DNA of 63,634 nt, counting the filler, from Vannella sp. (taxonomy: Eukaryota), in NCBI GenBank assembly GCA_023345925.1. It is 5 parts of 5 records of this genome, joined end to end, with 100 filler letters (N's around TTAATTAATTAA, not from the genome) between each part and the next. Parts side by side here need not be neighbours in the genome. Positions count along the whole stretch, not along the records: positions 31,127 to 53,000 come from JAJQQN010000678.1; 4 more parts are not named here. One strand, 5' to 3'. The notes under the pieces were generated by a model. That model worked only from the letters and a program-made list of their open reading frames with translations. It did no database searches and was not told the origin of the DNA. Both the position numbers and the translations under genes were made by a program. Positions 442 to 59,193 of the stretch are shown here, one piece after another. Within the stretch, counting starts at the first letter, position 1, and each line of letters begins with the position of its first letter.

Positions 442-1563
442 TCAAAGGTGTTGCCAGCGGGTATGGACTAAAGTGGGTCCAGCTTCATCATAATCTCCTT
501 TTGAGATGAAAAGGTTCTCTTTGGGAGAGGAAGCCAGAACAGAACCTCCAATCCAGACAGAAATCTTTCTCTCAGGGGGTGCCACGACCTTTGTAATAAC
601 GCTGGGAGGAACCAATGCCTCTAAGTCCTTCTGAAGGCGCTCAGAGAAGCCAGGGAGCATCGTATTTCCCCCTGAAACCAGCACATTGCTAAACAATTGA
701 CTCCTCAGGTCCATATCACAGCTCATGGTAGACTTTAGCACCAGTTCAGGGATACTTGGTAAGCTTATTTCGATCAATTCTGGTTGGAAGAGAGCTTCGG
801 CACAACGGAACCGCTCATCATTGATGGTGACGGTTTGCCCATCGGGAAGTTCGTAGGTCTTCTCCAGTTGAGAAAAGCAGCGAGAAACCTTTAGCTCAGC
901 TTCAAAGTCGAGGGCCACATAAGCGTGCTTCTCTTTCATCTCACGGACGATCTCCAAGTCACTCGAACTCTGGAGGTATTGGCCTCGCTCAGTGAGAAGC
1001 ACTGAAAGGTAGTTTGTGAGATCCCTGCCTCCCATATTGACTCTTTGTATGGCATGGCGGAGGACTTTACCCTCATGAATTGGGACAACATGAGTGACCC
1101 CACCGCCAGAACACAGACAGACGCCAGTTTTTCTTCCATTGGCGTAAAGAGCCAGTGCACCTTCATTCTCCATGGCCAATGCAGGCACTCCGAAGGTCTC
1201 CATCATCAACTCCAAGGTTTTCTCGCGGTCCCTACGTGGGGTCATCGGGGCATCAGTGAGAAGGAGAGCCTGTTCCTCCGGAGCGACCCGAAGCTCATTG
1301 TAAAAGGTGTTATGATAGAGCTTCTCCACGATTTCCCAGTCTTTCACAATGCCATGTTCAATGGGGTAGTGCAGGGACAACAAACCTCTCCTTTCTTGTA
1401 CCACGTCTCCAATGTTACTGGACACACCCATGCCCACCATTAACATTGGAAAGCGCTCTCTTCCCTCCACTGCACTGAATACTGCTCGGGGAGCATCATC
1501 TCCGGCGAACCCAGCCTTCCAAGAGCTGCTCCCCTTGTCGATGACCAACGCCGGATCTTCCAT
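442..1563 (-). CDS. Divergent actin / actin-like protein, intronless
   Basis: Actin signatures KAGFAGDDAPRAVF, YPIEHGIV, HNTFYNELRVAPEE, YELPDGQ, PPERKISVWIGGSVLAS. First ATG at 1563 (MEDPALVIDKGS). Confidence 0.93.
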   Translation of the reverse strand: MEDPALVIDKGSSSWKAGFAGDDAPRAVFSAVEGRERFPMLMVGMGVSSNIGDVVQERRGLLSLHYPIEHGIVKDWEIVEKLYHNTFYNELRVAPEEQALLLTDAPMTPRRDREKTLELMMETFGVPALAMENEGALALYANGRKTGVCLCSGGGVTHVVPIHEGKVLRHAIQRVNMGGRDLTNYLSVLLTERGQYLQSSSDLEIVREMKEKHAYVALDFEAELKVSRCFSQLEKTYELPDGQTVTINDERFRCAEALFQPELIEISLPSIPELVLKSTMSCDMDLRSQLFSNVLVSGGNTMLPGFSERLQKDLEALVPPSVITKVVAPPERKISVWIGGSVLASSPKENLFISKGDYDEAGPTLVHTRWQHL

Positions 1564-1906
1564 CTTCCAAAACAATGCGCAAAAGTGAATCCGAAAAATG
1601 CTTTGAATGAGAAATTGAATTTCTGTTTTAACGATACGAAAGAAATCAAGTGAATCCCACTAAACAAGCATTTTGAGTCACCTGCCAATGCGCACAAACA
1701 AAGATGACACAACGGCACTGTCCTCTGCAATGCAGTCAAGGAAGTAACGCATGCTGACGCTCTTTCCTGATTTATAGCGACTTGGCCGCTTACTTGGTCG
1801 ATTGGCAAAGTGCTGTCCCGCTCAAAGCATGTCACTGACTGGGCAGGAGGACAGAAAGGAGCTTCCCCTTCGTACAATGACATTCTGTTAGTTTTTGCAA
1901 ACATTA

Positions 1907-21600: not shown

Positions 21601-21700
21601 NNNNNNNNNNNNNNNNNNNNNNNNNNNNNNNNNNNNNNNNNNNNTTAATTAATTAANNNNNNNNNNNNNNNNNNNNNNNNNNNNNNNNNNNNNNNNNNNN
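21601..21700. other. Artificial contig spacer
   Basis: N run with central TTAATTAATTAA (stops in all frames). Confidence 0.98.
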
Positions 21701-25976: not shown

Positions 25977-27080
25977 TCAAAGGAAGCGGGCACTCTTCTT
26001 TCTACTGTGGGATGAATGAGGGGGAGCGGGCTGGAGAGGAGAAAGTGTGGGAGTGAGTTGATAGGTAGGGCGGTTGAGTCCAAGTTGTTTGTACTCGTTG
26101 TCTCCGAAGACCAGCAGGGCGCCTTCCTGTGAGAATGCCAAAGAATGGAGTCCTCCCGCGACCAGGGCGCTCATTTTTTTCAATGTTGGCACCAGAGCAG
26201 GCTCCGGCGGATTCGGAGTGTTACCATTCCCCAATTGCCCACATCCACCGAATCCCCAGGACCAGACGCTGCCGTTCTCATCCAGAGAGAGAGTGTGCCC
26301 CCATCCACAGGAAGCTGCAAGCATGGGAGGGATGTTCATGATTCGCTCAAACTTCGTAACATCCCCAGAAGTGCGCCCCAGTTGGCAAAGGAGGTTTTCT
26401 CCCGCGGAGAAGACGCCTCCTTGCGAGTCGATGAGAATCACTCCATTTTCAAGGGCAGCCAGGCATCGGAGAGGTCCTTCAGAACGGCCCTCTACCTGGA
26501 GAAGGGTTGGTTGGAGAGCGCTGTTGGTGTGGCCGAGGCCCAGTTGCCCGAAGAAGTTGTTTCCTAACACCCAGAGGCCTTCTTCGGCCTCTGCCACGAG
26601 GAACTTGTATCCGCAAGCCACTTTGAGGAGTGGAGGGAGGCCTTCCACTCGTTGGGGAAGAGAACGCGCCCAAGAGAGATCTTCCTCGCGCGTCCACACC
26701 CAAAGGCCGCCTTCGGTGTCGAGGGCAGCGCTGTGAGAGTCTCCAGAAGCCACCAGAGCAATGCAAGGCAGTTCTGGAATGTGCTGAAAAGCGAGAATAG
26801 GAGAGAAGGAGCGGGAGAGACCAGCCTCCTCATCAAGGACGAGGGAGTGTTGGCCTCCCCAGTCCACCTGCACCGGCTGCGGGCCATTCCAGGGGACCTG
26901 TACTGGTTGCCTTTGATGTTTCGTATGACCAAGACCGAGTTGGCCCTCTTCATTGTATCCAAAAGCCAAAAGGTCCCCTTCGAGGGAGAGGAGGAGCGTG
27001 TGAGAGCCAAACGGCATTCCAACAATGAATGGCAAAGAAGGGGCAAGTTTGGGCTCCTTCAGGAAGGACACTTCACCCAT
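25977..27080 (-). CDS. RCC1/BLIP-II repeat protein, intronless
   Basis: Repeated GxNxxGQLGLG / VxxGxxHSxxL motifs. Confidence 0.9.
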   Translation of the reverse strand: MGEVSFLKEPKLAPSLPFIVGMPFGSHTLLLSLEGDLLAFGYNEEGQLGLGHTKHQRQPVQVPWNGPQPVQVDWGGQHSLVLDEEAGLSRSFSPILAFQHIPELPCIALVASGDSHSAALDTEGGLWVWTREEDLSWARSLPQRVEGLPPLLKVACGYKFLVAEAEEGLWVLGNNFFGQLGLGHTNSALQPTLLQVEGRSEGPLRCLAALENGVILIDSQGGVFSAGENLLCQLGRTSGDVTKFERIMNIPPMLAASCGWGHTLSLDENGSVWSWGFGGCGQLGNGNTPNPPEPALVPTLKKMSALVAGGLHSLAFSQEGALLVFGDNEYKQLGLNRPTYQLTPTLSPLQPAPPHSSHSRKKSARFL

Positions 27081-31026: not shown

Positions 31027-31126
31027 NNNNNNNNNNNNNNNNNNNNNNNNNNNNNNNNNNNNNNNNNNNNTTAATTAATTAANNNNNNNNNNNNNNNNNN
31101 NNNNNNNNNNNNNNNNNNNNNNNNNN
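31027..31126. other. Artificial contig spacer
   Basis: N run with central TTAATTAATTAA. Confidence 0.98.
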
Positions 31127-31385: not shown

Positions 31386-31864
31386 TATGCAAAGGAAGCG
31401 GTGAGGGCGTTGCCCCCACCTGCCACTCGGAGACCGATTTTCCACAAAAAAAAATCTCTGTCCCTCCTTCCTTTGGATTTGGAAGAATCAGATGAAGGCA
31501 CCATTGCCTGCCAAAGAGCAACATTCAATAGTTGTTACCCTGATTTCATCAGCACACTAAAAGGAGGGAACAGGGGAATAAATCAGTCACTCACCTTTGA
31601 GGAGCATCCCCATTGCGAGAAGAAGTTCTTCTCCTCTCTTGTTCCTCTTCCCATTCCCGAAAGACACATCCAAGGGAAGTGTTGATGCTCGGCCACTTAC
31701 CCACTAAAAGCAACTAAGATATCAAAGGTGAAGAACTGAAGGTCCCACCGCAGAGCAGTGCGGCCCAAAGCAATTGGATCTCCCGCAAAGAAAGGTCCAA
31801 TACGACTAATAGCGCAGCGCATTGCTGCTCTGTTTGAGTTTTGTTGTTGAGAACAATCTGATTC

Positions 31865-34843
31865 TTATTCACCATGGATTTTTGATGCCGCTGTTCCAAT
31901 GGGATCATTGGGTAGAGCCGCTTCAGTTGGTCCGCACTCGGATGCGCAATCTGATGAGGATGAGGCACATTTTGATGGCGGGAACTTGGGGGCAACACAG
32001 CTCTTTTGGTGAATGCCTCGCACTTTCAGAAGAGCCTTCAAGTCAGCATTGCCCAATTGAAGGTCCTGAGCAGAGAGGAACAGCAACGCCCCTCGCCCTG
32101 AAGCTCCCGTCCCCCGAATGATATCGGCAGTTACCTTTGAGAGCTCGTTCTCACTCAACAAGTTGGCCATTTCCTCTGCTGTTTCGCACTTGCAAACACT
32201 GCACTCTTGGTCGGAGTAAGGAAGCGCTCCCTTTTCAAGGCGCTCCCGAGTGTAAAGCACAACGATTTGCTGGTCCTTTGGCAGTGCAGAGACCATCGAT
32301 TTCACATCTCTCTCTCTTCGCAAGATCAAGTCTTTGGCGGCGATGTTTTGAAGCACTTTGATAGTTCTCGCATCAGCACCGAAGCAGTTGAGCAACAAAC
32401 CGAGCTTCGGACTGCCTTCCTCATTGAGATCGAAAAGGCCTTCTGGGTCTTTTCTAAGCTGGTCCTCGAGAGCAAGGATCAGGCGTCTCTCCACCTCCGC
32501 GGCCGATTGGACAAAGCGTTTCAAGGCTTCAATATCAAGCTGTTGAAGCTCCTCCATGCGGCTTTCAGCGCTGTTGATCAGGCTTAGACGATCAAATTGA
32601 GCCAGGACTGGCTCCAGGCTGAGACGATCCAATTGAGTCAGGACTGGCTCCCAAAGGAGCTTGGTTGAGAAAGAGCACGGCAATCGCCCATCCTCGAACC
32701 ACTGCTGCATATCCTCTTTGTCCGGTTGGGTCGCTGAAGACATGATAGCTGCCATGCGGGAAGATACACCCAACTCCTTCTGCAGGATGACCTGCAGGCC
32801 CAGCGCTAGTGGGTTGTTCGCTTTGAAAAGCGCCAATTTAGCTTGTTGCTACCCCTTAGTGAGTCCCACGGTTCATCTCGTTTCCAACTCACCTTAAGGC
32901 ACTCGCCTCCCTTCTGAACAAGCAATTTGGTGATTTCGTCGTGTCCTTGGTGGAGAGCTAAGTCCAAAGCCGTCTTCCCAAAAGGTGAGTTCTCAAATTT
33001 TCTTGTTTCTCATCAAAGAAAGAGTAATGACAAGAAAGGGGATGGGGTCATTCACTCACAAACTAAAAAACAATCCCAGAAAGATGAGCGGAGTGCTTGA
33101 TCACAAGGTAGGTCCCATGTCACTCACTTGCTAAGAGCGGAAGGTGAGTTCTTGCCCTGTTTCTTTCTTCTTTGAAATTCTTTGTCCGTTAAGGGATCAG
33201 TCACTTACTCTCTAATCCCAAAAGGTGAGCGTTTGGAACCTCCCCCACTTCAGAGTAATCTAGCCCAAGAGGCTTGATTTGGAATGATACAGATCAGTCA
33301 CTCACATCCTAAATGCACCCTCAAGGTGAGCTTTTCTGCTCTTGAGCCCTCTTTCCTTCCCATAAAGGAAAGAGGCGTAAACAGGGGTGAAGGGGGCCTA
33401 TCTCTTACTTCCTAAAGCAATCCCAAATGTCAGGTCATCTATAAATGCGTATCTATCTTCCATATGGCATATTATGAGGAGGTGAGGATCAGTTACTTAC
33501 TGCCTAAAAGCAATCCCAAAAGGTGAATATTTTCATCTTCTCCTCTTCTTCAAAGAAAGAGAGATCATTGGGTGATAAGAAATCAGCTACTTACTCTCTA
33601 AAAGCAACCCCAAAAGGTTAGTTAACTATTACTCCCCTTCCTCTCTCTATCATTGATAAAGGACCAATCGATAGAAGCTAAAGAGGAAGGAAGAGAGAGA
33701 GGGGAAACTAGTGCCTTACAGCCTGGAGATGAGAGCCTAGGTGAGAATGAGGATCGCTTTAAGAGAGGAACCCACCTTGTTGAGCTCGATTCCGTCCAGA
33801 GAAAGCAAGTATTCGACGATGTCAAGTTGCCCTTTGTCGGAAGCAAAAGTCAGGAAGGTCTGTGGTGAGTTAGATTTTTGTCACAAGCCTCTCCCATTAG
33901 AACGGGTAGCGAGAAAGGGGGCCCCTATTCTAGGGTGATGCGGCCAAACCACTCCAAAACAAAGGCTTTCACTGAACCGAGCACGTGACCGCATCCTGAC
34001 ACCCCACTCCTTTCTGCCACACTTGAGACTTACCCACTAAAGGAAATCGCAAAAGGTGAGTTTCGTTCTCCTATCTTTCATAAAGAGAGGGAGGGGCTGA
34101 TGGATCAGTCACTCACATACTAAAAGCACCCCCATTGCGGTGAGTTCTTCTCCTTCTGCTTCTCCTCTTCTTCATCATCATCAAGAAGTATCAACGAGAG
34201 GAGATCTCCAAGACACTTACTCCCTAAAGCATCCCCAAAAGGTTAGTTCTCCTTTCCTCCTCTCCTCCTCTTCTCCCTTGTTCCCCCTTCCCCGTCCCTG
34301 GAGAAAGAGAATCAAAGGGAGAGAGGGAGAGTTTGATGGATAAGGAAGTCACTTACTCCCTAAAGCATCCCCATAGCGGTGAGTTCTTCTCCTTCTCCTC
34401 TTCCTTCTCTCATCCCCAGAGAAAGAGACACCAAAGAGAGGGAGTGGCAGATGGATCATTCTCTTACTTTCTAAAAGCATCCCCATTATGGTGAGTTCTT
34501 CTCCTTCTCCTCTTTCTCCTCCTTCTTCTCTTCTTTCCTCCTTCTCTTCATCTCTTTACCATCCCCAAGAGATATAACAGAGGAGAGGCGGACGCTCGTT
34601 CACTTACCCACTAAAGGTATCCAAGATGGTGAGACCCACGCCCAAAGGGAGGGAAGGCATGGACCAGTCACTTACCCACTAAAAGCAGCCCAAAGGTGAG
34701 TCCTCCTGCTCCTTCTCCTCTTCCGAGAGTTGCTTGACAGTTCTCACCATGTTCAGCCTCTCTGGGTGATCCTCTAGAAAGGCTTGAACCCTGCTCAAAC
34801 TCCCAGACTTCATGGCGGCCAGGTGCTCTTCGTTCACTCCCAT
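31865..34843 (-). CDS. Ankyrin-repeat protein with 15 single-codon micro-exons and a C-terminal helical/SAM-like region
   Basis: Exon 34843-34748 MGVNEEHLAAMKSGSLSRVQAFLEDHPERLNM; seven 3-nt exons (W,W,K,G,G,Y,W); exon 33859-33776 TFLTFASDKGQLDIVEYLLSLDGIELNK; eight 3-nt exons (A,R,A,E,D,R,Q,F); exon 32973-32893 TALDLALHQGHDEITKLLVQKGGECLK; final exon 32848-31865 in frame with the 323-aa ORF. All 18 introns are GT..AG and phase 0. Confidence 0.82.
32580..32651 (-). repeat. 36-nt in-frame tandem duplication (EPVLTQLDRLSL / EPVLAQFDRLSL)
   Basis: Two near-identical adjacent copies in the last exon. Confidence 0.85.
32974..33775 (-). repeat. Micro-exon array B: eight intron/3-nt-exon units
   Basis: AG|NNN|GT units in transcript order: GCT 33722-33720, AGA 33597-33595, GCA 33503-33501, GAA 33411-33409, GAT 33308-33306, AGA 33211-33209, CAA 33130-33128, TTT 33062-33060. 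Confidence 0.88.
33860..34747 (-). repeat. Micro-exon array A: seven intron/3-nt-exon units
   Basis: TTTAG|NNN|GTRAG units in transcript order: TGG 34678-34676, TGG 34610-34608, AAA 34470-34468, GGA 34359-34357, GGA 34223-34221, TAT 34119-34117, TGG 34036-34034. Each is preceded by a CTCAC/CTAAC branch-like motif ~20 nt upstream. Confidence 0.9.
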
Positions 34844-44100: not shown

Positions 44101-44519
44101 GGCTCCCATTCGTTCTCCTCTCTTCGAGCCACAAGTGCTTTGCTCACTTAATAAACAGACAGGCGGGACGATTTCGCCTACTTTCCATTGGACTTCCAGA
44201 CCGGTTACCGGGTCTCGTTTTGCCGCACTCTCGCAGTCACGGTGTCAAGCTCCTCAGAGATCAGAAAACAGGTGCAAGAGACGATTTCATTCTTCCTTCA
44301 GGGAGATGGAGGCTCCCTTTCATCACCCAACAAGAGAGCTGGTGTGGGACATTGCCTTTCTGAGTATAATTCCCTTTTTCGTACTCGGAAATTTCTTCAC
44401 CACACTGGACGAACCGGGGAATCACCAAAAATGGGTACAGAGCTTCGGAGTAGTACCTCGGATTGGCACTGAGCTTTTGTGGGTGTTCTTGAGGCCGGGA
44501 GACTGATTTTTTAGCAGCA

Positions 44520-45035
44520 ATGGACACCCCCACATGCCCAAAGGTCGTACGCCTTGTCATGGATCCGAACTGTAATCAAGACAAGTTGGAAGGATACAGG
44601 AATAGGTTTGGATACGTATCTCATTCAGGCTCGACACTTCTGCATTTCGCCACTCTTGGTGATAAAGTGGAAACGATTGAGCGTTTGCTTGATCACGGCC
44701 TCTCCCTTACAGCAACCAACCACTACGGGGAGTCTCCTTTACATTGGTCCTGCCGACAAGCCAGTCCTGAAGTGGTCCAGCTGCTCTTGGAGCGAAACGC
44801 TGACGTCAATCTTGCTGATAATGACGGCAATACTCCTCTCCACTGGGCTGCAAGCGAGGATAACATCCCAGTCATACAACTCCTCCTCGCAGCAGGCGGT
44901 TCCTCAGGAACGAGGAACCGAGATTTCTTGCTGCCAGTTGATGTTGCTTCTCCCGAAGGGGCCGTCCTCATCGATCCCCATTCCATCCAACCACTTCGAA
45001 GGCTACTTCGCAGGGTCAGAAGGAGCCTTCACTAA
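44520..45035 (+). CDS. Small ankyrin-repeat protein, intronless
   Basis: GSTLLHFA, GESPLHWSC, GNTPLHWAA at 33-aa spacing. Confidence 0.92.
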   Translation: MDTPTCPKVVRLVMDPNCNQDKLEGYRNRFGYVSHSGSTLLHFATLGDKVETIERLLDHGLSLTATNHYGESPLHWSCRQASPEVVQLLLERNADVNLADNDGNTPLHWAASEDNIPVIQLLLAAGGSSGTRNRDFLLPVDVASPEGAVLIDPHSIQPLRRLLRRVRRSLH

Positions 45036-53000: not shown

Positions 53001-53100
53001 NNNNNNNNNNNNNNNNNNNNNNNNNNNNNNNNNNNNNNNNNNNNTTAATTAATTAANNNNNNNNNNNNNNNNNNNNNNNNNNNNNNNNNNNNNNNNNNNN
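53001..53100. other. Artificial contig spacer
   Basis: N run with central TTAATTAATTAA. Confidence 0.98.
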
Positions 53101-59093: not shown

Positions 59094-59193
59094 NNNNNNN
59101 NNNNNNNNNNNNNNNNNNNNNNNNNNNNNNNNNNNNNTTAATTAATTAANNNNNNNNNNNNNNNNNNNNNNNNNNNNNNNNNNNNNNNNNNNN
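59094..59193. other. Artificial contig spacer
   Basis: N run with central TTAATTAATTAA. Confidence 0.98.

Follow-up and report, generated by a model that had tools for sequence, protein, structure and literature searches.

The question raised by this locus is whether exons of a single codon, strung together in arrays, contribute to a protein, and if so to which part of it. The window analyzed (63,634 nt from Vannella sp., GenBank assembly GCA_023345925.1) consists of five joined contigs, in which N runs at 21601–21700, 31027–31126, 53001–53100 and 59094–59193 enclose a 12-nt linker with stops in all frames; genes on opposite sides of these runs are therefore not real neighbours. On the minus strand, from 32974 to 34747, a motif scan identifies 15 units of the form YAG-NNN-GTRAG (AG-NNN-GT) between 17 GT-AG introns, disposed as two arrays of seven and eight units on either side of an 84-nt exon (Table 1). 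All 17 array introns are in phase 0, so that each cassette adds exactly one amino acid, as the original prediction held; the span it gave for the family, 33063..34747, leaves out the 17th intron (32974–33059). The scan finds no units with an exon size of 1, 2, 4, 5 or 6 in this region, for which 1000 mononucleotide shuffles yield a mean of 0.2 and a maximum of 3 units compared with the 15 of the real sequence, and the remainder of the window contains eight YAG-NNN-GTRAG motifs. AG, GT and the +5 G are present in all 15 units, whereas the enclosed triplet varies, taking upon recount the same 11 values as first reported; no stop codon occurs among the 15 triplets, an absence that is not significant (P=0.07). 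Contigs from four runs (two studies) agree across the units with 0–2 differences, and thus the arrays are not an assembly artefact; the layout of 15 one-codon units is confirmed as real. Joints that appear to skip cassettes were considered as alleles with another cassette number and rejected, their sides extending over only 20–34 letters with 80% likeness. Elsewhere the window carries a divergent intronless actin-like ORF (442–1659, minus strand) and an RCC1-repeat-like ORF (25977–27080, minus strand), both named by eye from their translations, as well as an intronless ankyrin ORF with ordinary loops (44493–45035, plus strand; Ank_2 E=1e-27) that serves as an internal control without arrays.

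Table 1. Features of the array gene and its 3' flank, in window coordinates.
Feature	Position	Strand	Remarks
Exon 1 (ATG start, 32 codons), helix pair resembling an ankyrin N-cap	34748..34843	-	12–14 end-anchored identities, five homologues
Array 1, seven 3-nt units, predicted hairpin loop 1	34034..34678	-	
Array 1 units, lowest coordinates	34676, 34608, 34468, 34357, 34221, 34117, 34034	-	
Introns 1–8 (69, 65, 137, 108, 133, 101, 80, 174 nt)	33860..34747	-	
84-nt exon, 28 codons, ankyrin repeat core	33776..33859	-	Pfam Ank_2 E=0.008 (sub-threshold)
Array 2, eight 3-nt units, predicted hairpin loop 2	33060..33722	-	
Array 2 units, lowest coordinates	33720, 33595, 33501, 33409, 33306, 33209, 33128, 33060	-	
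Introns 9–17 (53, 122, 91, 89, 100, 94, 78, 65, 86 nt)	32974..33775	-	
81-nt exon, last ankyrin repeat	32893..32973	-	Pfam Ank E=7e-4 (sub-threshold); ORF 32806–33009
Ordinary 44-nt phase-0 intron (putative)	32849..32892	-	GT..AG; homologues read through insertion here
Last exon, 327 codons, open	31865..32848	-	
Two decayed cassettes 3' of stop codon	31579..31732	-	nhmmer E=3.6e-4 and 0.085

From their sequences, exon 1, the 84-nt exon and the 81-nt exon encode the helix pairs of a three-repeat ankyrin protein, and in the complete gene product the repeats are followed by a coiled coil and predicted tandem SAM domains. The exon borders set by the splice signals coincide with the framework blocks seen in five full-length homologues, where the motif closing exon 1 recurs, the middle block has 28 residues (11–18 of 28 identical to the product of the 84-nt exon), and the last block begins with T/S. 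An alternative in-frame acceptor for the 81-nt exon could lie 18 nt further upstream, although a good branch site is missing there. Among the nine homologues reaching the loops that were examined, six have both loops (5–11 and 6–14 residues) around the 28-residue block, in two (P0240 and P0285) nine residues connect the first block directly with the last repeat, and one was only partly parsed. Without its units the window gene would have loops of zero residues, compared to 5–14 in the homologues, and the model with all units included scores 83.7 bits versus 62.2 with all units skipped. In PDB the family profile finds DARPins as its closest sequences, and the DARPin alignment puts the arrays on the hairpin between a conserved Asn and the TPL motif, the stretch that is randomised in DARPin libraries. 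Neither this position on the loops, which is the central result, nor the host gene was named in the original prediction.

These loops are hypervariable. Three close paralogues from a marine catalogue, which is presumably transcript-derived, show 71–90% identity in the frameworks and C-terminus versus 14–50% in the loops, a variability seen at the level of the protein sequences; the loop residues show no conserved order (compared with shuffles, the real one ranks 4th of 21). Several full-length homologues come from transcript collections; one of the loop-bearing homologues is a Vannella robusta transcript, as is another family member, and the family also includes one ciliate-labelled transcript. 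The host, an uncultured protist, is probably an amoebozoan; a tryptophan dioxygenase search turned up no close relative bearing a name. P0240 and P0285 are close relatives of P0177 that have no middle ankyrin repeat and carry a different nine-residue loop, and they represent either exon skipping or two-repeat paralogues. A single-sequence fold of P0267, from V. robusta, was poor (pLDDT 44) and gave no Foldseek match at E≤0.001.

The last exon contains a small helical domain, a shortened coiled coil, two predicted SAM-like domains and ~45 extra C-terminal residues. Used as a query it retrieves 35 other proteins at 38–58% identity (36 matches in all), and its family numbers 114 cluster representatives. 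Its structure model (pLDDT 85) has SAM-type domains as its top ten structural matches (best Z 7.4, rmsd 2.5, 68 residues), which cover both 134–209 and 216–287, the best Z lying below the tool's caution level; Foldseek with the same model returned no match at E≤0.001, and Pfam SAM_3 reaches a best E of 0.006 in 5 of 26 aligned members (among 25 of 61 families listed). The assignment of SAM domains to the C-terminus is thus made with moderate confidence. No NACHT domain was found in the 26 aligned members (among 25 of 61 Pfam families listed) or in 29 further homologues, and with full-length homologues of 426–458 aa, and only ~340 nt between exon 1 and the divergent neighbouring gene, there is no room for one. 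The micro-exons supply 15 of the ~430 codons of the gene.

Some features set the window copy apart from its relatives. The reading frame extends ~45 codons beyond the usual stop of the family, and at 32572–32655 (minus strand) lies a 36-nt tandem duplication (12 residues), where the coiled coil of the paralogues is ~40 residues longer. The shortened coil and extended C-terminus may indicate that this copy is decaying. An attempt to read 31700–31865 as a dead exon 1 was abandoned, the signal being weak (best of nine tests: 14 of 500 shuffles). The aberrant C-terminus, together with the fact that most metagenome matches to the unit pattern are plain satellites, would fit a pseudogene, or a locus whose arrays are non-coding repeats within a pair of long introns. 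This explanation is very unlikely: AG, GT and the G at +5 are kept throughout while the triplet varies, removal of the units deletes both loops, which are present in every full-length homologue, and the exon of 327 codons is open. That the units are coding exons, whichever way they are spliced, is by comparison very probable.

The introns of the arrays form a family of their own, which was evaluated against 22 putative introns hand-picked from the window, most from 116 candidates and some by eye. The array introns are longer in the median, as had been proposed (91 nt, n=17, versus 47 nt, n=22), with ranges that overlap (53–174 versus 39–68 nt). A TTTAG 3' end is found in 12 of 17 array introns and in 0 of 22 controls, the distance from branch site to AG is mostly ~20 nt rather than ~12, and the array introns resemble each other at both their 3' and their 5' ends more than the controls do (permutation p=2e-4 for each end). 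The prediction of homologous intron ends is borne out by these values, with exceptions at the array boundaries, where two or three introns lie outside the family: the family 3' end is present in introns 1–7 and missing from the introns on either side of the 84-nt exon, 8 and 9 (intron 9 being an ordinary short intron); intron 17 ends in AAG and keeps only the branch-side half; and intron 1 is without the family 5' end. The extended consensus is special to the arrays inasmuch as the family is absent from the 22 control introns. Donors that follow the units read GTRAGT in 12 of 15 cases versus 5 of 22 controls, and have G at –1 in 3 of 15 versus 15 of 22; a full intron-side consensus with seldom a G at –1 fits splice signals that have moved off the exon. 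Homology is confined to the ends, the interiors aligning poorly (mean column identity 28%) and running from pyrimidine-rich to purine-rich (polarity p=2e-4). Intron hairpins are no more stable than those of shuffles or controls, with 0 of 17 fold z-scores below –2.

A search of the window with a model of the junctions, covering ~63 kb in five contigs and hence a small sample of the genome, finds the locus itself and the two decayed cassettes beyond the stop codon, the next match having E≥0.55. One of the decayed cassettes has AG-NNN-GT intact and the other has lost AG; they align locally to the intron 6/7 junction and look like the decay of a neighbouring copy. Copies outside genes, which bear on a refuting condition of the original prediction, thus do occur, in these two instances, and none is found in other genes of the window. 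Introners, or introner-like elements, are families of homologous spliceosomal introns, and the array introns are likewise such a family; an element of this kind, inserted repeatedly into loop-coding DNA with one-codon exons as a neutral by-product, would account for the homologous intron ends, for the high summed depth described below and for the two copies outside the reading frame. However, unlike introners, the window copies are clustered, with all 15 spacings exactly 3 nt and all introns in one phase, their ends are conserved and their interiors divergent, the codon diverges faster than its flanks, and no copy lies in other genes of the five contigs, including the intronless ankyrin ORF at 44493–45035. 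The introner option that the original prediction had left open thus fits poorly, and we consider it highly improbable.

The behaviour of the codon differs from that of the splice signals around it. Information content is 1.3–2 bits at positions –5 to –1 and 1.1–2 bits at +1 to +6, and only 0.2–0.5 bits in the triplet; codon identity (mean 0.31) does not track flank similarity (r=0.08, p=0.20). Units 3, 4 and 6 are 90–92% identical over the 40 upstream letters, while their codons differ at two or three positions; the most alike cassettes have 3–4 mismatches in 39–40 flank nucleotides, and their codons differ at 2, 2 and 3 of 3 positions (binomial 0.017, 0.028 and 0.0005, for pairs chosen post hoc). 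Units 4 and 5 have the same codon. The comparison of triplet and flank divergence thus agrees with the proposal of a diversifying codon, which changes faster than its flanks. Growth of the arrays by strict tandem duplication, the other half of that proposal, was not detected: neighbouring cassettes are not detectably more alike (Mantel r=0.09, p=0.20), clustering by array is weak (p=0.08), and no linkage of flank similarity across the exon was detected (p=0.21). With likeness not tracking position in the array, simple tandem growth is not established, and later exchange among copies is the likelier history.

The explanation that we consider probable is serial inclusion of one-codon exons combined with diversification at the level of DNA. 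The 15 triplets would be true exons whose serial splicing forms the two hairpin loops of an ankyrin–coiled-coil–SAM protein, a predicted variable binder from an expanded protist gene family. With the splice signals on the intron side (GTRAGT donor, branch site ~20 nt from AG, TTTAG), the codon would be free to change, and the homologous intron ends would allow cassettes to be gained, lost and exchanged through unequal crossing-over or conversion, always in frame. Most transcripts would carry most units, skipping being a second layer. Judging from the architecture only, the protein may serve in target recognition and signalling: the likely function would be to recognise foreign proteins, whether from prey, endosymbionts or giant viruses, and the output may be SAM-driven clustering, which is the weakest step of the scheme.

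Alternatively, the units are real but serve mainly for combinatorial alternative splicing, in which a transcript would take one subset from up to 128 x 256 choices. With every intron in phase 0 any subset is in frame; in the DARPin alignments a canonical loop needs six units where the arrays offer seven and eight; and in P0240 and P0285 only the nine-residue loop separates the first block from the last repeat, as if the middle exon had been skipped. There is also a precedent in the NACHT-ankyrin (nank) genes of Tuber, which are reported to have codon-sized, alternatively spliced mini-exons (PMC4986451, PMC9815663, PMC3689799, PMC13449251). However, no subset variants occur among the homologues (P0177 and P0275 have the same loops, as do P0240 and P0285), homologue loops are equal to or longer than the full arrays here, and the two-repeat forms may be separate genes. 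Combinatorial splicing as the main use is thus rather unlikely, and serial inclusion is preferred.

How often such cassettes occur was approached through contig depth. In run X1, which may be the sample of origin, the depth is ~5 for unique DNA, 255 for a conserved coding stretch and ~5,800 for the cassette at 34091–34147 (summed over up to 48 records), with the limitation that summed contig depth is not copy number and that other organisms may contribute; run X4 gives only 20–30 versus 3–4, with patchy cover. Divergent copies occur in the same runs, and the read depth suggests many copies of the gene or its cassettes, as do, for an expanded family, the 36 and 114 matches above, which are pooled over organisms. 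Read naively, the X1 depth corresponds to ~50 genes and ~1,000 cassettes, two figures that agree with each other. A bolder possibility, which we hold only tentatively, is a natural DARPin library in an amoeba. Combinatorial splicing, together with exchange at the DNA level, would then draw on about fifty ankyrin–SAM genes with up to about a thousand cassettes to generate a very large repertoire of binding loops for intracellular defence, and the system would have evolved separately from that of the fungi.

Beyond this genome, a metagenome scan with a three-unit pattern gives at least 111 loci, mostly plain satellites, and none of the 124 loci listed matches the cassette model or, by tblastn, the protein family. 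Fifteen loci with varied triplets were picked and, after two duplicates of L051 were dropped, comprise 202 triplets with 0 stops where 7.6 are expected, a count that is partly circular because stop-rich loci had been set aside beforehand. As these arrays match neither the cassette nor the protein family, the one-codon layout recurs in unrelated genes. L047:879–4752 (plus strand) has 55 or more one-codon units with 25 triplet values, no stop and introns of ~67 nt; unrelated to the window cassette, it sits between GTPase-like genes of basidiomycete look (by eye). On the minus strand of L051 (the same locus as L037 and L052) at least 35 one-codon units without a stop follow exons that weakly match a Pfam GTPase family (MMR_HSR1, E=5e-4); this looks like a fungal GTPase-like gene carrying a one-codon array. 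Shorter arrays (3–21 units), in which triplets vary and the spacers of 55–95 nt are intron-like, are found in L040, L042, L055, L078, L104, L043, L113, L025, L098, L121, L100 and L112. Neither the 151 pattern matches in viral contigs nor the 41 in prokaryote genomes include a confirmed family locus; a match to the family motif in viral contigs was rejected, being at chance level and without a match to the cassette model.

Several known systems resemble this gene in part. Schistosoma micro-exon genes encode secreted proteins mostly by micro-exons, which are longer than 3 nt; the tiny in-frame exons are alike, but in the window gene only a minor fraction of the codons comes from micro-exons, and those of Schistosoma are not known to lie in ankyrin loops. 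DARPins share the ankyrin layout of N-cap, internal repeat and C-cap, but the window gene is natural and its loops vary in length as well as sequence. Coprinopsis is reported to have 27 exons of 3 nt in 26 genes (PMC12230235), isolated micro-exons which show that tiny in-frame exons like those described here can be spliced, but which occur essentially one per gene. The brown algal NB-ARC-TPR and ROCO-LRR genes are reported to have one repeat per exon (PMC13449251); there too the exon layout of candidate immune receptors follows whatever varies in a repeat domain, and paralogues exchange, but the unit is a whole repeat rather than one codon. The closest likeness is to Tuber nank genes, which share arrays of 3-bp exons between canonical introns in the ankyrin region, an expanded family and diversification of a recognition domain. 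Unlike these, the window gene has no NACHT domain, its ankyrin repeats come first and are followed by the coiled coil and predicted SAM pair, its host is likely an amoebozoan and not a fungus, and it has 15 units, seen at the DNA level, not dozens; alternative splicing is reported for Tuber and is hypothetical here. It works like the Tuber system but is not a member, having neither a NACHT domain nor room for one.

In the literature covered, which includes few subscription papers, one-codon exon arrays were found only for the Tuber NLR genes; the present gene, from a non-NLR ankyrin family in what is probably an amoeba, adds a second case that seems to be independent. It is a compact test of how the spliceosome handles eight adjacent 3-nt exons. 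Gene callers fail on such genes (P0001, the database entry for the window gene, consists of the last exon only), and families of this kind are therefore probably undercounted. By analogy with the truffle immune-receptor genes, the arrays likely let the gene family alter the binding surface predicted for its products in steps of one amino acid. A second case of such arrays, lying on loops that vary among relatives, points to a repeatedly used route towards variable receptors in microbial eukaryotes.
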